Assembly: GCA_002422905.1 (NCBI GenBank)
Contig: DITU01000107.1
Location: forward strand, 134,633-198,632
DNA from: Verrucomicrobia bacterium UBA6176
GTDB lineage: Bacteria > Verrucomicrobiota > Verrucomicrobiia > Limisphaerales > UBA9464
Reading direction: 5' to 3'
DNA: 64,000 bases
In this document: piece by piece, positions 2,933 through 9,579 of the stretch
Position numbering within the stretch: position 1 is the stretch's first letter
How the letters are laid out: every line of letters starts with the position of its first letter
Notes under the pieces: model-generated
Seen by the model: only the letters and a program-made list of their open reading frames with translations
The model's database searches: none
Told to the model about the DNA's origin: nothing
Program-made: the position numbers and the translations under genes

Positions 2933-3570
2933 GGCAACGCCCTCCCCGGATGGGATTCGATCCCGGCCATCGACTTCAGGCGGCCTGCGATTTCCTGGAC
3001 CTTCGCCGCGGTGAGTGGAGCCTGGATGACCTCGGATGCGAGTCGGCGTTGAGGTTCGACATGGTCCCGGTGCATGGGTTGGACCTGGTGCAGGAACTGT
3101 CTTCGTACGGCCTCGGGCGATCTGCCGCGTTCCCGGGCATCGCGGGCGAGACGCCGTTCGAGGCGTTCGGCCTCCCCGCATTCCAGGAAGCAGCTCCAGT
3201 CGAAGCGGGACCGGATGTCCTCATGATGGAGCAGCCAAAGGCCGTCCCAGATCATCACGGGCTTGGGGATGAGCTGACGCGGGAGGGGATGGCGGGTGTG
3301 GGTGTGGAAGTCATAGGAGGGAACTTCGGCTGCCGCGCCTTTCCGGAGCCGGTCGAGCACCAGTCCCAATCTCGTCCAGTCAATGCTGGCCGGGTCATCG
3401 AAATTGACAGCATCCCGCTCGGCAGGAGGAAGCGCCGAAAGATCGCGGTAATAATCATCGAGACTGATCCGCGCTGACACCTGTGGGAGCGCTTCGAGCA
3501 GGTGGTCGGCGAGCCAGGATTTGCCGGATCCGCTGCCGCCGACGATGGCGATATGGAGATTCGGAGTCAT
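2929..3570 (-). CDS. Uridine kinase / phosphoribulokinase-family P-loop kinase
   Basis: It has a Walker A motif (IAIVGGSGSGKSWLA), then SLDDYYRD and FDDPASIDW, typical of the Udk/PRK family. It has ATGA overlaps at both ends. Confidence 0.7.
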   Translation of the reverse strand: MTPNLHIAIVGGSGSGKSWLADHLLEALPQVSARISLDDYYRDLSALPPAERDAVNFDDPASIDWTRLGLVLDRLRKGAAAEVPSYDFHTHTRHPLPRQLIPKPVMIWDGLWLLHHEDIRSRFDWSCFLECGEAERLERRLARDARERGRSPEAVRRQFLHQVQPMHRDHVEPQRRLASEVIQAPLTAAKVQEIAGRLKSMAGIESHPGRALP

Positions 3571-4769
3571 TGGTCGGAGCCGGTCCGTCCCAAGGCGGAC
3601 ACCCTTGAGAACATGGCTTCGAGGTCACTGATATAGGTCTCGAAATCGTAGCGCTCGCTCACCAGGCGCAACCCGGCCTCGCCCAGGGACCGGGCACGGT
3701 CCTTGTCCGCGAGCAATTCATCAATGCGGGCTGCGTAGGCATCGCGATCCATCCAGGGGACCAGATAGCCGTTGTGCCCGTCGATCAGCCAGTCGCGGAT
3801 GCCACCGGCATCGAAGGCGACGACGGGGAGGGCGTAGCGCATGACTTCCAGACCGATGGTGGCGATGGGTTCGGGCCAGACGGAGCTGAGGGCGACCACA
3901 GTGCATTCGCGGTAGTACTGGGTGAGTTCCTCCTGGGGAACGAATCCCTTGAAGGTGACGCGGCCTTCGAGTCCCAGTTGGCGGGACAGTTGTTCGCAAT
4001 GGGACTTGTGGTTGCCATCGCCGAGGATGATGCACTCGAAGGGTTGACGGACGCGGGCCAGAGCTTCGAGGAGGACATCGACGCCTTTGCCGCGGATGAT
4101 CTGGCCGGCGTAGAGGATGAGGTTCCGGTTGCTGAAGGAGCTGCGGAGGTTGGGATCGCCCATGCGTGGGACCGGGGCGTGGATCTCAATGCGGGCTGGA
4201 TCGAATCCATTCTGGAGGAGTTCATCCCGCATATAGGTGGTGACGACGATCATCCGGTGGAAGCGTCGGTTGAGTTCGATCTCGCGGCGTTTGTCGGAAT
4301 AGCTGACCCAGCGGAGGGGGAAGCCGGGCCCGGACTTCCTGACGGCGAAGGCGAGGCAGGGAACGAGGCAGGCGAGGGAGGCGGGGCGGGTGCAGATCTT
4401 GCGGGTGAAGTAATCGTACTTGTAGCTGCGCATGCAGTAGATGTCGTGGTCATGGACCATGCGTGCGAGGGGTTGACCGGATTCGACGAGTGCGCCGATG
4501 ACCGACAGGTCGGCCATCTTGTGCACATAGACGGCGTCGGGCTTGAAGGCGGCGAGGGCCTTTTGGACGGTGAGGTTGTTGTCGTGGTCACCGAGGGCTG
4601 CACGGAATGGGAAGGTGGAATCCCAGGCGGATTCGCTTCGACCGGTGGAAGGGCCATGAAGGATTCCGAGGGTGTGTCCGCGCCGTGCCAACTCGGTGGC
4701 GGTGATGAAGGCATTGGCCTCGGCGCCGGCGAGGGCACCATACCGTTCATGCACGTAAAGGATTCTCAT
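3567..4769 (-). CDS. Glycosyltransferase family 4 (GT-B, EX7E type)
   Basis: The sequence begins [21 protein letters not shown].. and ends with C-terminal SSVWPEPIATIGLEVMRYALPVVAFDAGGIRDWL, an E-x7-E-like motif. It has ATGA overlaps at both ends. Confidence 0.9.
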   Translation of the reverse strand: MRILYVHERYGALAGAEANAFITATELARRGHTLGILHGPSTGRSESAWDSTFPFRAALGDHDNNLTVQKALAAFKPDAVYVHKMADLSVIGALVESGQPLARMVHDHDIYCMRSYKYDYFTRKICTRPASLACLVPCLAFAVRKSGPGFPLRWVSYSDKRREIELNRRFHRMIVVTTYMRDELLQNGFDPARIEIHAPVPRMGDPNLRSSFSNRNLILYAGQIIRGKGVDVLLEALARVRQPFECIILGDGNHKSHCEQLSRQLGLEGRVTFKGFVPQEELTQYYRECTVVALSSVWPEPIATIGLEVMRYALPVVAFDAGGIRDWLIDGHNGYLVPWMDRDAYAARIDELLADKDRARSLGEAGLRLVSERYDFETYISDLEAMFSRVSALGRTGSDQ

Positions 4770-7429
4770 GGCAGGCAGGGGGTTGAGTCAGGGGAACCAT
4801 CGAGGTGGGTTGAAAGCCAGTCCGCGAGGAGGCACACCCCGGTTTCTGCCGCCTCCCGCAGCGGGGTCAATTGCTGATGGCACTCCTCCATCTGGTCCTT
4901 GGAAGCGAGGGTTTCCATTTCCTGGAATTGTTGGCCGAGCTCGGTGAGGCCGAAGGTGGCGGCGATGCCCTTCAGGGCGTGCGCAAAACGTTCGGCTTCC
5001 ACGGCGTCGCCCCGATGGATCGCCTCGGAAACTTGATGGAGGCGGTCGGGGAGTTCGGAGGCGAACTCGCGGACGATCCCGGAGACGGTTTCCAGGTCCA
5101 ACTCCTCGACCAACCGGTCGAGGGCGGGCAGGAGCGGAGTGGGGTGGGTGGGCGGGGTTTTGGTGGCCGAGGCAGGGCCGCCGTGCAGCTTCAGGGGCTT
5201 GAGCACCCGCAGCATGGTGGTGCGGAGGTTGGACAGGGTGAAGGGTTTGGCGATGTAGTCATCCATGCCGATGGAGAGGCAACGTTCGCGTTCGCCGATG
5301 AGGGCATTGGCGGTCAGGGCGATGATGGCAATGCGGCGTGGGGGCGGATTGGCGGCCTCGATCCGACGGATGGACTGGGTGGCCTGGTAGCCGTCCATTT
5401 CCGGCATGTTGCAATCCATCAGGATGAGGTCGTAGGGCGTCTTCTGGAGGCTGCTGAGGACTTCGAGACCGTTCTGGGCGACGTCGGCCTTGATCCCGAG
5501 TTCCTCGAGCATGAGGAGGCAGAGCTTGCGGTTGATGGGATGATCCTCCGCCAGCAGGACCCGAACGCCCTCGATGGGTTGGAGATCATCGGAGCGGCGT
5601 TCGACCGGGCGGGGGAAAGCGGGGATGGAGTGTTCGGGCGTGGTTCCGTCCTTGCCACCTTCGACGGCGGTCACCAGGGCATCGAACAGGTAGGATTGTT
5701 TGACGGGTTTCAGGAGGATGTTCTCAAAGACATCGAGGGTGGCCTCGTTGTGGGTGGCGGTGGTGGAGGGATGGGCGAGAAGGATGCAGTGACACCTGGT
5801 TTTACGCTCGATGAGGTAGTTGATGAGTTCCCGGCCACCGAGCGAGACGGTGGCATCGTCACAGATCACGAGAGGTTTGCGTCCGTCGGCGAGGGCTTCC
5901 CCGAGATGTAGCATGAGTTCCTGCGGGGAAGCCGACTCCCTGAAGGTGATGTTCCAGCTGTGGAATTGTTCGCGGAGGGATTCCGCCTGGATCATGGATT
6001 TGACGCAGAGGAGGACATTGGCACGCACGAGGGCGGGATGGCTTTCGTGTGCGGGTGGCGGTCGGAGTGATTTCAGGGGGATCTCGAACCAGAAAGTCGA
6101 GCCATGGCCAAGCTCACTTGTCACTCCGATCCGTCCGGACATGAGTTCGACGAGGCGCCTTGAGATGGCGAGGCCAAGTCCGGTTCCGCCGAACCGGCGT
6201 GACGAGGATTGATCCGCCTGGACAAACGGCTGGAACAGGCGTTTCAACTGGGGATTGGTCAGGCCGATCCCGGTATCCTGCACCTCGAATCGGATCCAGA
6301 TCCGGAATTCCTCCGCCCTGATGACCTGGACGCGGAGAGTGATCTGACCGTTCGGGGTGAACTTGACGGCGTTGCCCACCAGGTTGACGAGGATTTGCCG
6401 GAGCCGTTCCGGATCGCCGAGCACCCGGTCGGGAACGTCGTGCTGGACGATGGAGGCCATTTCGAGGGTTCGTTCCGAATCCCGGGTGGCGGCGACTTCC
6501 AGAACGGCATCGAGCACCGGACGGAGGAGGAATTCCCGGGGCAGGATTTCCAGTCGGCCTGCCTCGATCTTCGAGAAGTCGAGGATGTCATCGATGATGC
6601 GGAGGAGGGCGTGGGTACTCTGGGAGATGGAATCGGTGAACTCGCGTTGGCGTGCTGCGAGGGGTGTCTTGCCGAGCAGTTCGGTCATGCCGAGAACCCC
6701 GTTCATCGGGGTGCGGATCTCGTGGCTCATGGTCGCCAGGAAATCGCTCTTGGCGCGGCTTGCCGCCGCGGCTTCCTCGGCGAGGGCATTGGCGCGGTCC
6801 CGTTCCTTCTCCAGGCTGATCCGGGACTGGTCGAGGTCCTCGATCATGCTGAGCATCACCCGGCGGCTCTGTTCGAGTTCGGAGGCGCGCCGGACCAGAT
6901 CGTCCGAAGTCTGTTGGAGGCGTGACTCGGCCACCTTCTGTTCCGAGATGTCGGAGAGGATTCCGATGACTTCATTGCCCTGGCCCGGGCTGGGGACGGG
7001 TTGAAGGAGGACGCCGCAGATCATTCCCGTATCGAAAACCGGGAAATTGAACTGCTGGATCTCGCCATGGAGGGCCTTTTCGAATCGCGCCAGATGGGCC
7101 GGATCCGGAAACAGTGCCGACAACGGGCGATCCTCGAGATCTGCGGGGCGATGCCCCAGTCGGGCAAGGAGCGCGCCGCGGGCGAGGAGGATCCGGAAGC
7201 CGTCGTTGGTCCGGGAGCAACGGATGACGACGTTGGGCTGAAGCTCGAGGGTTTGCCGGAAGAATCCGTTGGCCGTGGCCGGCGTGGAGCCGTGGCCTGG
7301 CGGGGATTGTTCCCCGGTCCTGGGCTGGAAGGACTGTTCGATGGCATCGAGCAGATGATGCAGTTCCGGGATGTCCGGGATCCCGCTGGGGAAGTATTGG
7401 GCGATCAGTTTCCTGAGCGGATCATTCAC
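4766..7429 (-). CDS. Soluble hybrid sensor histidine kinase: PAS-like, HisKA, HATPase_c, degenerate receiver-like, REC and Hpt domains
   Basis: It has an H-box ([15 protein letters not shown]), an N/G1/G2 pattern ([23 protein letters not shown]), a REC domain ([28 protein letters not shown]) and an Hpt motif ([13 protein letters not shown]). I saw no TM helix. The start is GTG at 7429 and overlaps the upstream stop by 8 nt. Confidence 0.9.
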
Positions 7430-8513
7430 CGTGCGGTGGGGTCGGGGGTGGGGTCACGGGGACACGGTCTGAGGCAGCCGACGGATAGAGGGGCGTGCGT
7501 CCCATCTCGCGGCAGAGTTCGTTGACCTCGTGCTTGAGTTCGAGGACGCGGTGTTCGCGGTTCATCATCACCCGGTTGACGCGTTCCAGTTCGGACATGG
7601 CGTTCCGGATCCGATCCTCGTCTTCCTTGCGGGCGGTGATGTCCGATTGAATGGCCATGAAATGGGTGATTTCACCGGCGTCGTTGCGGATGGGTTTGGC
7701 CTCGATGGTGATCCAGTATTTCCGGCCGAGCCTGGATTGGTTGAGGATTTCCACGGAGAAACCGACTCCTTCGCGGACGCTGCGGCGCATCAGTTCGACG
7801 GTGGCGGCATTGGTCTCGGGTGCCTGCAGCAGGGAACCCGGGGTCTGGGCGCGGACCTCGGCAAGGGAGTAACCGGTGAGACGGGTGAACCCGTCATTGA
7901 CCCATTCGATGCGGCCCCGGGCGTCGGTGAGGACGACCGCATTGGTGGTGAGTGCGGCGATGAGTGCGAGTTTGCGCTGTTCGGCATCCTGATCGCGGAG
8001 GCGTTCATTGGCGGCGCGAAGTTCCGCGCGTTGGCCGGTCAGACGATTCGCCAACTCCTTGGAGTCAGCCAAGGCCTGGTGCTGGGCCTGGACGATATGC
8101 AAGAGGTCGAGTCCGGGATCGTGGATTGGAAAATCATTGATGTTGAGTCCGAACCGGGCGATGGCGTTGGCCTCTCCCAACCAGGGTGACACCAGGAAGA
8201 CGAGCACCCGACCGGAATCAACCGGAAGCAGTTGTCCGCGGAATCGCAGGCTGGAAGCGGGATGCAACAGGAGGAAAAGCTGTTGCTGATTCTCCATCAG
8301 GACCGCGTGGTCCAACGCCACATCCGGCCGGATGAGTTGGAAGACATCCTTGAACAGTGCACCCGGAGTTGCCTCGGGACAGTAACGGGCGAGCGATGCT
8401 CCCACCTGAACGATGCGCAGGTCGCTATCGACGGCGAAATGAAACGGAAAAACGGCATGGAACTGATCGGGCGCCAGTCCGATCTCCAGGGTCGGTATGG
8501 CCGACAGTTTCAT
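7422..8513 (-). CDS. HNOBA (heme-NO-binding-associated) plus PAS domain signalling protein with no recognisable output domain
   Basis: The N-terminal half (FHAVFPFHFAVDSDLRIVQVGASL..FQLIRP..LRFRGQLL..VFLVSPWL..GLNINDFPIHDPGLDLL) matches the HNOBA pattern of soluble guanylate cyclases. A coiled coil follows, then a PAS domain (GRIEWVNDGFTRLTGYSLAEV..HFMAIQSDITARK) and a C-terminal helix (NREHRVLELKHEVNELC). I chose the ATG at 8513 because it forms an ATGA overlap with the H-NOX stop; the track start is 8531. Confidence 0.8.
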   Translation of the reverse strand: MKLSAIPTLEIGLAPDQFHAVFPFHFAVDSDLRIVQVGASLARYCPEATPGALFKDVFQLIRPDVALDHAVLMENQQQLFLLLHPASSLRFRGQLLPVDSGRVLVFLVSPWLGEANAIARFGLNINDFPIHDPGLDLLHIVQAQHQALADSKELANRLTGQRAELRAANERLRDQDAEQRKLALIAALTTNAVVLTDARGRIEWVNDGFTRLTGYSLAEVRAQTPGSLLQAPETNAATVELMRRSVREGVGFSVEILNQSRLGRKYWITIEAKPIRNDAGEITHFMAIQSDITARKEDEDRIRNAMSELERVNRVMMNREHRVLELKHEVNELCREMGRTPLYPSAASDRVPVTPPPTPPHGE

Positions 8514-9079
8514 GCAACCGGAGATTTCCATTCCACCAGGAAGAGGTCGTGATCCGCGCCCTCCGCCTTGCTCTCGAGCACCGTTGCCGTGGCCTCGGTC
8601 CCGAACCGTTTACCGAGGCCTTGTATCAGACCGACGACGAAATGGGTCAGGCCGGCGCGGTGCGTACGGTAGTGGAGGTGCAGGGAGTTGGGGCCGACAT
8701 CGGTGCAGGCGAATCGGGGTGGTTGGAGGTTGGGAAACACCATGACGACCCGGGTGTGGAAGTTGGGGAGGTTCAAGAGGAATTCGGGGAGGCTGGAACC
8801 GCCGGCGCTCATCAATCCTCCATAGCCTTCCTCCGCGGTCCGCAGCACCCAATGTTCGCCAAAGGCCCGCAGCAAGGCGTCCTGCGGCGCGCCCAGTACC
8901 GAACTCGCCGCCGCCACGAGTTGAAAGGTCATTTCGTCGGCATACGCCTCATTGCTGATGAACATTTCGACATCAACGCCGGCCTCCCGCTTGATGCGTT
9001 CCCACACTTCGACGCCGTGGTGGAGAACAACCATCTGTTCGATGCCGCGATTCACCATGCCGTACATGTCGGCGGACAC
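8510..9079 (-). CDS. hnoX: H-NOX (heme nitric oxide/oxygen binding, HNOB) sensor protein
   Basis: The N-terminal MYGMVNRGIEQMVV is the classic H-NOX start. A proximal-His context is present (LLNLPNFHTRV), as is a conserved Pro region (FPNLQPPRF). The heme-propionate motif is HYRTHR, a YxTxR variant of YxSxR. The protein is about 185 aa. The true start may be the second Met, at 9067. Confidence 0.85.
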   Translation of the reverse strand: MSADMYGMVNRGIEQMVVLHHGVEVWERIKREAGVDVEMFISNEAYADEMTFQLVAAASSVLGAPQDALLRAFGEHWVLRTAEEGYGGLMSAGGSSLPEFLLNLPNFHTRVVMVFPNLQPPRFACTDVGPNSLHLHYRTHRAGLTHFVVGLIQGLGKRFGTEATATVLESKAEGADHDLFLVEWKSPVA

Positions 9080-9114: not shown

Positions 9115-9579
9115 TTGCGGTTCATGGGTCATGGATTGCCCATTGCACGGAATCGGATGTCGACATTGGGCAACAACAGCATTGCTATCGAACCGGTGAC
9201 TCCGGGCGAATCCATGGCCTGCAGGCGTTCCGGGATCTTGCTGGGCATGGCCAATCTCCCGGCCTGTTTGCTCGTCTTCATCGGGGCATTTCTGAGGGAG
9301 TCCGACCTGTTCTGGAGAAACGAGGGGGGATGGTCGATCTGGATGCGGAACCTGGTTGAATTCGCCTTCTATCCGGTGTTTGTCGTCCTGCTGGGATCGG
9401 TGACCCTTTCCGCCGGTTGGATAGTCATTGGCAAGCCAGCCCAATCGCCGTTGGGACTCCTGATCTGGGGCCTCGTGGTGGTTCAGGTCGCCTCCCTGTT
9501 TGGAATCGCCGGGGTGGTGCTGTTGAACAACGTTCTCAATGTCCTCGCCGGTCGCCCCGTCCACGATCACGGGTTCTGA
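9115..9579 (+). CDS. Hypothetical small membrane protein (start uncertain; internal Met codons at 9214 and 9247)
   Basis: This is the only plus-strand ORF in the gap between the two minus-strand operons. It has three or four hydrophobic helices (LPACLLVFIGAFL, FAFYPVFVVLLGSVTLSAGWIVI, LGLLIWGLVVVQVASLFGIAGVVLL). I recognise no family. Confidence 0.35.
   Translation: MRFMGHGLPIARNRMSTLGNNSIAIEPVTPGESMACRRSGILLGMANLPACLLVFIGAFLRESDLFWRNEGGWSIWMRNLVEFAFYPVFVVLLGSVTLSAGWIVIGKPAQSPLGLLIWGLVVVQVASLFGIAGVVLLNNVLNVLAGRPVHDHGF

Follow-up and report, generated by a model that had tools for sequence, protein, structure and literature searches.

In soluble guanylate cyclase (sGC), cryo-EM has shown that the H-NOX domain contacts both the PAS domain and the coiled coil. 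In bacteria, HNOBA is encoded beside an HNOB gene, as Iyer, Anantharaman and Aravind reportedly noted in 2003. Short LOV proteins consist of a PAS core and a J-alpha helix, with no effector domain. The HnoX/HnoK (HahK, HqsK) pairs are linked to the control of biofilm or exopolysaccharide (PMC8738867), a link that the gene context of the present locus suggests it may share.

Here we describe a locus within a 64,000-nucleotide stretch of contig DITU01000107.1 from Verrucomicrobia bacterium UBA6176, a bacterium of soil or freshwater (the window), in which three coupled genes, for an H-NOX, an HNOBA-PAS protein and a histidine kinase, precede polysaccharide genes. The locus is an uncharacterised reduced variant of the known H-NOX/kinase pairing. 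Its best reading, to which we assign a probability of about 0.55 and whose links are genomic, is a three-protein NO-sensing relay controlling a phosphorelay at the head of the polysaccharide gene string.

Genes, domains and the H-NOX sensor

The locus comprises the following genes:

8510-9067, minus strand: H-NOX haem sensor, 185 aa from ATG 9067, in a reading frame open back to GTG 9079 (Pfam HNOB, PDB matches, alignment)
7422-8513, minus strand: output-less HNOBA-PAS adaptor, 363 aa (Pfam, AF2, family alignment)
4766-7429, minus strand: soluble hybrid histidine kinase, 887 aa, GTG start (Pfam, AF2 of residues 1-260, Foldseek)
3567-4769, minus strand: GT4 glycosyltransferase, which leads the downstream glycan genes and anchors synteny with same-genus genomes

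The adaptor ATG overlaps the H-NOX stop in an ATGA at 8510-8513, read directly from the sequence, which places HNOBA beside HNOB. The adaptor and kinase genes share 8 nt, GTGAATGA, in different frames, and the GT4 start overlaps the kinase stop at 4766-4769. No terminator-like or promoter-like site was found between 7300 and 9700. A profile search of the genome returned exactly one HNOB and one HNOBA. The initial annotation had described a stand-alone H-NOX and a stand-alone, output-less HNOBA-PAS protein, ATGA-coupled upstream of a soluble kinase; both genes are real and lie on the minus strand at these coordinates, and overlaps are present at both junctions.

The H-NOX protein matches Pfam HNOB (PF07700) with an E-value of 4e-46 and 157.4 bits (cut-off 25.5 bits) over model positions 1-161 of 163. 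Its best solved relative is Nostoc Alr2278 (Ns H-NOX, PDB 2o09; E 2e-58, 49% identical), and it also matches sGC beta1 (E 8e-34) and So H-NOX (E 3e-5). Translation likely begins at ATG 9067, giving MYGMVN... as in Ns H-NOX and sGC beta1, rather than at GTG 9079. An alignment against reference sequences verified beforehand, including Tt, located three haem-pocket features:

8756-8758, minus strand: proximal His104, invariant in the alignment, at beta1 H105, Ns H105 and Tt H102
8657-8671, minus strand: haem-propionate motif Y133-x-T135-x-R137 (Y133-R-T135-H-R137), from the alignment and a translation check
8639-8641, minus strand: Phe143 at the distal-Tyr position, matching Tt Y140 in the alignment

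The proximal His, a misalignment of which would have spoken against haem binding, is in register. The YxTxR motif (HYRTHR), singled out earlier as a departure from YxSxR, is present as described and falls within the S/T variation usual in the family: Tyr and Arg do not vary among the aligned relatives, and the third position is Ser or Thr. The His previously assigned to the distal-Tyr position was a product of naive counting; the residues that align with His142 are Tt D139, beta1 D144 and Ns P143, and proper alignment gives Phe143. Because this position carries Phe and not His, the sensor is predicted to be NO-selective, with an apolar distal pocket that would bind NO or CO and exclude O2. Phe143 at Tt Y140, a Trp at the position of Tt N74 and the absence of the Tt W9 segment together rule out the O2-binding (Tt type) subclass.

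The adaptor runs from an HNOBA-PAS through a 56-residue helix, a LOV-like PAS and a 44-residue tail helix to a Pro-rich end, and its AF2 model (pLDDT 84.6) shows the same alternation of PAS, 56-residue helix, PAS and 44-residue helix. Its parts are as follows:

8151-8471, minus strand: HNOBA PAS core, adaptor residues 15-121 (Pfam HNOBA, PDB matches, AF2 secondary structure)
7950-8117, minus strand: long helix after the HNOBA PAS, residues 133-188 (second half of the HNOBA model, AF2, Foldseek to sGC beta1 chains)
7641-7940, minus strand: LOV-like PAS, residues 192-291, with the PAS match of the Pfam scan at 197-300 (Pfam PAS_9 at 8e-14, alignment to LOV 9vf7, Foldseek)
7479-7637, minus strand: conserved C-terminal tail SELERVNRVMMNREHRVLELKHEVNELCREMGRTPLYPS, comprising helix 293-336 and a G..P.YPS end, single copy in the genome

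Profile searches, which might have missed HNOBA altogether, detect it at 4e-27 and 95.5 bits (Pfam PF07701, cut-off 23.4 bits) in two stretches, model positions 4-73 and 111-200 of 216; the second half of this model corresponds to the coiled-coil part in sGC. The HNOBA PAS matches PDB 2p04 (NpSTHK PAS) at E 2e-16, and HNOBA plus helix matches sGC beta1 residues 201-353 at E 1e-14. A Pfam scan detected no output domain in the adaptor and no cyclase domain in either adaptor or kinase, which excludes a soluble guanylate cyclase. Nor is the adaptor an HNOBA histidine kinase of the NpSTHK type, since it stops 27 residues past the tail helix and the kinase is encoded by an ORF of its own, out of frame with the adaptor, a split shared by the relative L007.

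The LOV-like PAS of the adaptor superposes on LOV 9vf7 with a Foldseek TM of 0.89, and short LOV proteins are the best structural matches both of the second half of the adaptor (TM 0.86-0.91) and of the kinase N-terminus (Foldseek). It is not a LOV photosensor: the LOV motif NCRFLQ reads PGSLLQ, with the invariant Pro225 in place of the photoactive Cys, Ser in place of Arg and a one-residue insertion, and the flavin-contacting residues are mostly lost. Residues P225, G226, L229, Q230, T234, N258, Y266, W267 and E271 of this domain (PAS1) are invariant in the family.

The kinase consists of N-terminal helices, a divergent PAS, a 78-residue helix, HisKA, HATPase, a degenerate receiver-sized segment, REC and Hpt. 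For residues 1-260, AF2 gives the PAS and the 78-residue helix, and Foldseek matches PAS and short-LOV structures. All NCBIfam models score under their curated cut-offs on this protein.

Fused and split relatives

Among 35 species loci, H-NOX lies immediately upstream of the HNOBA gene in 31, typically with a 4-nt overlap, and HNOBA-PAS is fused to HisKA-HATPase-REC in 20. Since bacterial HNOBA normally sits within a histidine kinase beside a separate hnoX, the window's adaptor is split from a kinase and not from a cyclase, and the initial framing of the locus as a divided sGC-type chain no longer holds. In the verrucomicrobial clade that includes the window, the HNOBA-PAS part is a separate protein with the tail, and the usual order is H-NOX, two-PAS adaptor, FIST (NosP-like) and kinase. 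The window is a reduced form of this four-gene module, from which PAS2, FIST and an N-terminal helix of the kinase have been lost, as they have in L007; FIST has no match anywhere in this genome (93% complete). The tree of the sensor part is compatible with one or several origins of the split forms.

If the split were the decaying remnant of a fused kinase with HNOBA, or an artefact of assembly or frameshift, the adaptor would be functionless, and the 8-nt overlap of ORFs in different frames and the loss of PAS2 and FIST would fit such an origin. So would two genomes of the same genus (G009, G007), where H-NOX is followed at the same locus by a fused HNOBA kinase of 1274-1283 aa and then by a GT4 76% identical to that of the window. 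The sensor cassette itself, however, shares 40-51% identity with its fused same-genus counterpart, compared with 76% for the adjoining GT4, which points to a different lineage and not to a broken copy. L007 (76% identical) is split in the same manner, with the adaptor stop, a 35-nt spacer and a GTG kinase start, and dN/dS is low for all three proteins (H-NOX 0.09, adaptor 0.17, kinase N-terminus 0.21; dS about 0.8-0.9). Moreover, the tail is kept across dozens of stand-alone proteins, and the kinase has its own N-terminal PAS, conserved among relatives. A remnant or artefact is thereby already contradicted and very improbable, and the substitution pattern supports the adaptor as a genuine stand-alone protein under purifying selection, not a frameshifted kinase. 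L005 and L062 likewise have a GT4 after the module.

Variants of the module bear on where H-NOX acts. In P0047 a GAF domain stands in place of HNOBA with hnoX kept upstream, and in P0046 / L009 the adaptor lacks HNOBA and has no hnoX beside it. HNOBA is therefore not essential to the adaptor-kinase pair, H-NOX may act elsewhere, and the step from H-NOX to HNOBA in the relay is weakened by the GAF replacement. Both kinds of variant suit a scheme of parallel inputs, in which H-NOX would act on the hybrid kinase by direct binding, the HNOBA-PAS protein would be an independent sensor that modulates the same kinase through a PAS ligand or cofactor of its own, and HNOBA would serve for dimerisation only. 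Characterised H-NOX proteins do act directly on adjacent kinases or cyclases, as HnoX does on HnoK/HahK, and such direct binding to the kinase counts against the relay (PMC8738867). The many invariant PAS1 residues and the best PDB matches of this domain, the cofactor-binding PAS domains of MmoS and LOV, also favour a second ligand, although most LOV flavin-binding residues are gone. If HNOBA were unrelated to H-NOX, the adjacency of hnoX and HNOBA in 31 of 35 loci would be difficult to account for, and in sGC, whose entries 6jt0 and 8hbf are matched by the adaptor (PDB search, Foldseek), H-NOX contacts PAS and coiled coil. Overall, we consider parallel inputs unlikely, and less probable than the relay.

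The C-terminal tail and its partner kinases

The tail has the consensus ELERFNRxMxxRExRVxELKxEVNxLxxxxGxPPxYPS, over about 44-45 residues, and is carried by 903 clusters, nearly always at the C-terminus. Many of these proteins are output-less sensors, with HNOBA, GAF, CHASE, PocR, Cache-HAMP or multi-PAS sensor domains, and no Pfam family was reported for the tail among the tail-bearing proteins scanned. On the kinase side, one further element is relevant:

6821-6880, minus strand: 20-residue helix motif of the 'NRRxMLSMxED' type (motif A), whose Arg190 precedes the phospho-acceptor, His236, by 46 residues

The tail and the motif-A kinase each occur once in this genome, in overlapping genes; motif A occurs in 1 of 17 H-box ORFs, a background taken from this genome alone, and the motif may be common in the kinases of other genomes. 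At loci with readable downstream DNA, the next gene after every tail-type adaptor, or the next but one where FIST intervenes, encodes a kinase that shares the N-terminal PAS and has a linker of 75 residues between PAS and His; the linker of fused kinases has 33 residues, 42 fewer than in the tail-partner kinases. Of 14 tail loci from other sensor families, 9 have a motif-A kinase no more than three genes downstream (L099, L100, L101, L103, L105, L114 and L065; L109 by reading the sequences; L113 and L118 more loosely). The first half of the tail also resembles the kinase helix itself (hhalign probability 81%, E 1.2e-5), a match between short coiled coils to which composition could contribute. 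Without the PAS end, the tail helix scores 18.8, where the shuffled null gives 9.6 +/- 2.2 and at most 14.9.

Natural fusions tie the same elements together. In P0129 (a single 7-kb contig), a tail-bearing adaptor, a 25-residue linker, a motif-A-like segment and DHp form one chain, and in L024 the adaptor domains are fused to a kinase core 61% identical to that of the window. Taken with the 20 of 35 fused loci and the same-genus genomes, these argue that the split pair is functionally equivalent to a fused kinase. The link between adaptor and kinase put forward in the initial annotation is in this way tied by comparative genomics, through fused forms, natural fusions and the pairing of the tail with a matching kinase type.

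It is unlikely that the adaptor instead targets another component of the locus, for instance a partner switch of the STAS / RsbW type or a glycan enzyme, with the kinase regulated separately. STAS and SpoIIE genes do recur in these neighbourhoods, and L008 has a PAS-SpoIIE-HATPase_c_2 gene between its HNOBA-PAS gene and kinase, but the L008 protein lacks the tail. Tail-type adaptors are always beside a matching kinase, whereas STAS and SpoIIE are variable, and the fusions join the adaptor to the kinase and not to other proteins.

A broader and more tentative proposal is that the tail may be a general, unrecognised trans-acting output module of enzyme-less sensors, plugging into the 'NRRxMLSMxED' PAS-to-DHp helix of a separate kinase as a mixed helical bundle. 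If so, H-NOX, HNOBA-PAS protein and kinase would together make up the smallest natural case of the tail module, and a tractable model for how H-NOX drives a PAS and coiled coil, as in sGC.

Proposed relay and comparison with known systems

In the three-protein relay, H-NOX would bind haem through His104 and the Y-x-T-x-R motif, with a predicted apolar pocket formed by Phe143 and the Trp at Tt Asn74. It would then act on the HNOBA PAS and long helix of the adaptor, the elements packed against H-NOX in sGC, and the signal would pass through the LOV-like PAS into the 44-residue C-terminal helix. Co-occurrence and natural fusions suggest that the tail would bind the kinase in trans, most probably beside the long motif-A PAS-to-DHp helix, and so alter autophosphorylation. 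From the gene context, phosphate would move from His236 to REC, to Hpt and to a response regulator tuning exopolysaccharide production.

The cyanobacterial H-NOX and HNOBA (H-NOXA) kinase systems (Alr2278, 2o09; N. punctiforme STHK PAS, 2p04/2p08) share with the window an hnoX directly upstream of an HNOBA-first gene and an apolar distal pocket. They differ in that the window's HNOBA-PAS is free-standing and ends in a conserved helix without running into a DHp, while its kinase is encoded separately, contains a PAS of its own and has 42 more residues in the PAS-to-His helix. Animal sGC beta1 (6jt0, 8hbf, 6pas) likewise has H-NOX, HNOBA PAS and a following long helix; the window, by contrast, lacks a cyclase, has a separate H-NOX, feeds a histidine kinase phosphorelay and adds the LOV-like PAS and tail.

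With HnoX/HnoK (HahK, HqsK) of Shewanella and Vibrio the window shares a stand-alone NO-type H-NOX encoded with a kinase, and an HqsK-like hybrid kinase phosphorelay. Those kinases have neither HNOBA nor an intermediary, H-NOX binding the kinase directly (PMC8738867), and the H-NOX of the window falls in the sGC/Nostoc branch. NosP/NahK of Pseudomonas, Legionella and Vibrio is resembled in the FIST/FIST_C gene that relatives carry directly before the orthologous kinase, where NO sensing by FIST is putative, and in the match of the window kinase to the NahK/ErcS C-terminal model (NCBIfam NF041832). Membership of that system is rejected on this score, 147.7 bits against a cut-off of 400, and on the lack of a FIST gene in the genome. 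Finally, the short LOV proteins (PpSB1-LOV, PpSB2-LOV, SBW25-LOV, MrLOVe) resemble the adaptor as an output-less PAS with a long coiled-coil helix; unlike them, the adaptor has no photoactive Cys, has lost most flavin contacts, carries HNOBA in front and ends in a tail sequence common to hundreds of non-LOV sensors.

Locus organisation and the H-NOX sensor

The relevant genes all lie on the minus strand and follow one another in the order H-NOX, adaptor (the HNOBA-PAS protein), kinase and GT4:

8510-9067/9079 (-), H-NOX, 185-189 aa
7422-8513 (-), HNOBA-PAS adaptor, 363 aa
4766-7429 (-), soluble hybrid histidine kinase, 887 aa
3567-4769 (-), GT4 glycosyltransferase

The H-NOX stop and the adaptor start share an ATGA, the adaptor and kinase genes overlap by 8 nt (GTGAATGA), and the kinase and GT4 genes by 4 nt. 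Between 7300 and 9700, no terminator-like and no sigma-70-like site was found, the latter with a sigma-70 promoter model that is uninformative for this phylum. The host assembly (5.4 Mb, 93% complete) contains a single HNOB match and a single HNOBA match, and the nearest named homologues come from Verrucomicrobiota. Divergent from hnoX lies a small ORF at 9115-9579 (+), predicted to encode a membrane protein and without a Pfam match. Its true start is probably internal, since the gene at the corresponding position in L007, a related locus, runs in the same direction and encodes only 110 aa (L007 1228-1560).

The H-NOX protein matches Pfam HNOB at 4e-46. Its nearest solved structure is Nostoc Alr2278 (Ns H-NOX; E 2e-58), followed by sGC beta1 (E 8e-34), while the Shewanella and Thermoanaerobacter (Tt) proteins match far more weakly (~1e-5). 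An alignment was made to three references, Ns H-NOX, Tt H-NOX and human beta1, the last two verified as identical to PDB chains. The proximal His104, Pro117 and Tyr133/Arg137 are invariant, and the proximal His lines up with the haem-ligating His of the reference proteins. The initial annotation had singled out YxTxR as a departure from YxSxR; this proved ordinary, as the third residue is Thr in the window protein and one relative and Ser in the others. The same annotation had counted a His five positions after the Arg, at the distal-Tyr site. The alignment corrects this count: because the window protein carries a one-residue insertion after the motif Arg relative to Tt, the counterpart of Tt Tyr140 is Phe143, and the counted His pairs with Tt Asp139, beta1 Asp144 and Ns Pro143. 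A Trp is the counterpart of Tt Asn74. Since O2 binding by H-NOX proteins requires a distal Tyr (PMC8738867), the Phe at this position leads us to predict an NO-selective type.

The adaptor family and its reduced form

Profile searching detects HNOBA in the adaptor (Pfam HNOBA, 4e-27, covering model positions 4-200 of 216), in agreement with the identity first proposed. Residues 197-300, C-terminal to the HNOBA part, form a PAS, and a Pfam scan of the 363 aa detected no output domain. Solved structures that match the HNOBA part include 2p04, the kinase PAS of N. punctiforme (E 2e-16), and sGC beta1 (residues 201-353, E 1e-14). An AlphaFold2 model built from a 34-sequence alignment (pLDDT 84.6) gave the following layout, in adaptor residues:

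15-121, PAS
133-188, one 56-residue helix
192-291, PAS
293-336, one 44-residue helix, the tail
after 336, Pro-rich C-terminal end, disordered

Foldseek matched this model to DosP PAS-PAS, to short LOV proteins with a J-alpha helix and to sGC beta1 chains. The second PAS (PAS1) is LOV-like in sequence; an invariant Pro occupies the position of the photoactive Cys and most flavin contacts are gone, and with these key residues missing a LOV/flavin reading was rejected.

The initial annotation had framed the locus as a split of the sGC-type chain. A census of bacterial HNOBA loci (six-sequence alignment as query, one genome per species, 35 loci examined) favours another frame: in 20 of the 35, HNOBA-PAS runs into HisKA-HATPase-REC in a single chain of 600-1300 aa. 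In cyanobacteria, HNOBA-PAS fused to a histidine kinase is a known arrangement. H-NOX stands directly upstream of the HNOBA gene in 31/35 loci, and four are of the tail/FIST type, FIST being a NosP-like sensor family. Four HNOBA kinases (L016, L017, L025 (Gemmatimonadaceae) and L010) have no H-NOX in the 1.1-9 kb readable upstream. Three loci (L019, L022, L027) are typical verrucomicrobial hnoX-HNOBA kinase contigs under MAGs labelled Bifidobacteriaceae or Akkermansia muciniphila, labels that are probably binning or labelling errors.

Among 16 same-genus genomes, none carries a tail-type gene and five carry a fused kinase of ~1270-1370 aa. Genomes G009 and G007 have an H-NOX gene (51% identical), then a fused kinase of 1274-1283 aa (identity 44% in its adaptor part and 40% in its kinase part) and then a GT4 that is 76% identical to that of the window. 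As these genomes carry a fused kinase at the same GT4 locus, the comparison shows that the window's adaptor and kinase stand where its relatives have one fused protein. Moreover, because the GT4 is 76% identical but the H-NOX and kinase only 40-51%, the sensory cassette at this polysaccharide locus must have been exchanged for that of another lineage, while the neighbouring GT4 stayed.

A search of 5.8 billion proteins returned dozens of stand-alone relatives of the adaptor, ~500 aa long, built of HNOBA, a helix and two PAS domains and ending in the tail helix, whose consensus in this family is SELERxNRVMxNRExRVLELKxEINxL..G.PP.YPS. Their context is uniform: hnoX overlaps the adaptor gene by 4 nt, and after the adaptor come a FIST/FIST_C gene of ~380 aa (NosP family) and a hybrid kinase of 887-892 aa, often followed by a second kinase, then a GT4, a Udk-like gene and a sugar transferase. 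Haloferula luteola has this four-gene module, as do several metagenome assemblies. In two variants, FIST and a kinase of this type still lie downstream: one has GAF in place of HNOBA and keeps hnoX upstream (P0047), the other has neither an N-terminal sensor domain nor hnoX (P0046 / L009 6421-7491). In a third, the gene next downstream of a GAF-ended protein is of the SpoIIE type. A tree built on the HNOBA, helix and PAS1 segments (70 rows, poorly resolved at depth) needs at least six changes for the two-PAS tail label, which argues against a single origin of tail-type adaptors and for repeated swapping of their C-terminal parts.

Aligned to this family, the window adaptor cleanly lacks PAS2, the extra PAS of its two-PAS relatives, and retains the tail. 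No FIST gene was found anywhere in its 93% complete genome. The window kinase is without an N-terminal helix of ~25 residues (FLSHTLE..EANERLRQEAE) that is present in all FIST-linked orthologues, and the site of the loss, kinase residues 36-54 (window 7270-7330 (-)), is disordered in the model. L007 is the sole other example of this reduced state, likewise without FIST, the adaptor PAS2 and the kinase N-terminal helix; its identity to the window is 76% for the adaptor, 88% for H-NOX and 73% for the kinase N-terminus. There, a spacer of 35 nt separates the adaptor stop (TAG) from the GTG at which the kinase starts, and dN/dS between the two loci is 0.09 for H-NOX, 0.17 for the adaptor and 0.21 for the kinase N-terminus (dS ~0.8-0.9). 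Given this spacer and the low dN/dS, the three-gene form is real and maintained, and a frameshift or pseudogene origin of the adaptor/kinase split is rejected; the stand-alone HNOBA-PAS gene of the initial annotation is upheld. That PAS2, FIST and the kinase N-terminal helix are all missing together suggests that the three may cooperate in the four-gene form, and the lost kinase helix is possibly the footprint of a FIST docking site.

The tail and its putative partner helix in the kinase

Fusions, linker lengths, genome uniqueness and helix similarity all provide evidence, at the sequence level, that adaptor and kinase work together. The L024 fusion (1297 aa) comprises HNOBA, helix, PAS, GAF, PAS2, DHp, CA, pseudo-REC, REC and Hpt, with a kinase core that shares 61% identity with the window kinase. 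A second fusion of 1472 aa (P0129), found on one contig only and overlapped upstream by a 187-aa gene, joins a full tail-bearing adaptor through a 25-residue Pro/Ser/Thr linker to a 12-residue segment of the motif A type and then DHp. Motif A is a helix motif (MLSMxED type) in the PAS-to-DHp helix of the kinase, upstream of the phospho-acceptor His. From the PAS-end DxT to the H-box there are always 33 residues in fused kinases and always 75, six heptads more, in kinases following tail-type adaptors. The latter kinases share an N-terminal PAS, divergent by Pfam and clear, with a 78-residue helix, by AF2/Foldseek, as well as a motif that opens with ELEQ(N/S) and continues for 15 residues. In the genome of the window the tail occurs once and the helix motif in 1/17 H-box ORFs, and these two genes overlap.

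Compared by hhalign, the N-terminal half of the tail and the beginning of the kinase helix are similar across a one-heptad gap (probability 81%, E 1.2e-5). With the PAS end left out, tail and kinase helix score 18.8, against 9.6 +/- 2.2 (maximum 14.9) for 60 column shuffles, and hhalign found no similarity between the tail and the PAS-to-DHp linker of fused kinases. A reading of the tail as a degenerate DHp helix 1 (His to Glu) was rejected as unsupported: in fixed register, fused kinases have nothing in common with the tail beyond the PAS end and an N-R pair, and hhalign gave a probability of 6%, with nothing left after the PAS end was removed.

The tail extends well beyond the adaptors. When 1.84 billion cluster representatives were scanned in full by HMMER with a 49-residue tail query (E <= 0.001), it was found in 903 clusters (examples P0123-P0270; adaptor copy at window 7479-7637 (-)), with the wider consensus ELERFNRxMxGRExRVxELKxEVNxL..G.PP.Y. 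The match almost always lies ~15-70 residues from the C-terminus, in proteins 50-1500 aa long. Those scanned as examples have CHASE, PocR, Cache-HAMP-PAS, REC-PAS-CHASE or eight PAS domains and lack an output domain, and no Pfam family was reported for the tail in them. In some proteins the tail also ends an internal module. Within the phylum the motif occurs in 50/301 genomes, often several in tandem, and in some Verrucomicrobiota genomes as many as five genes for tail-bearing sensors lie in tandem.

Fourteen tail loci in other sensor families were read for downstream kinases. In seven (L099, L100, L101, L103, L105, L114, L065), a kinase lies downstream, directly or after 1-2 genes, with a '..(A/M)L(S/N)xM(E/Q)D..' helix 43-50 residues before the H-box. 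A motif-helix kinase of another H-box type follows in L109, the kinase motif is farther from DHp in L113 and L118, tandem tail proteins are found in L102 (G209:C13:19000-38000) and L104 (G260:C13), and no such kinase lies downstream of the tail gene in L107. A general pairing of tail and motif-helix kinase is a lead, not a result, the background rate of the helix being known from the genome of the window only. L100 and L101 share the order large tail protein, 221-aa tail protein, FIST-like gene of 375-378 aa and MLSMVED-helix kinase. In L103 (G182:C115), tail sensor and kinase precede a REC protein, a Bac_transf-like sugar transferase and a STAS protein, surroundings that echo the glycan and STAS context of the window.

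Proposed signalling route and relation to known systems

These data show which domains are present, with their key residues, and establish gene coupling, selection, fusions and co-occurrence. What follows is an inferred route, in which all contacts between proteins, the direction in which regulation runs and the output of the locus are putative. NO would bind the H-NOX haem; it is probably exogenous, as a search of the genome for NOS and cd1 nitrite reductase found neither. H-NOX would then act on the HNOBA PAS and helix of the adaptor, as the H-NOX domain does inside sGC. The change would travel via the second PAS to the tail, which would pack on the long helix of the kinase and shift autophosphorylation, and a REC-Hpt relay would feed a regulator of the downstream glycan genes. 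H-NOX and adaptor might instead feed the kinase separately, as parallel inputs, an arrangement that would suit both the retention of hnoX where GAF replaces HNOBA and the direct binding of H-NOX to the kinase in Shewanella and Vibrio (PMC8738867); we consider it rather unlikely. We retain the serial route through the adaptor, and the coupling of the locus to polysaccharide genes agrees with the known NO-sensing role in biofilm control.

The hnoX/HNOBA neighbourhood and the HNOBA kinase have long been known, the founding HNOB/HNOBA paper reportedly being that of Iyer et al. in 2003. FIST genes near hnox have been mentioned in passing (PMC8738867), and our literature search turned up no account of a stand-alone HNOBA-PAS relay or adaptor, its tail or a module of H-NOX, adaptor, FIST and kinase. 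What most merits follow-up at this locus is the tail motif. The helix sits on hundreds of sensor families otherwise annotated without an output, and if it does dock partner kinases, many 'orphan' sensors would gain a predicted partner. The locus also appears to record the evolutionary dismantling of a fused sensor kinase, with extra inputs (the FIST protein, a second PAS) added or dropped. sGC is a drug target, and how the H-NOX ligation signal passes through PAS and coiled coil is its central mechanistic question. In the window, sensor, relay and effector are separate, soluble bacterial proteins and could therefore be mixed, truncated and titrated independently.
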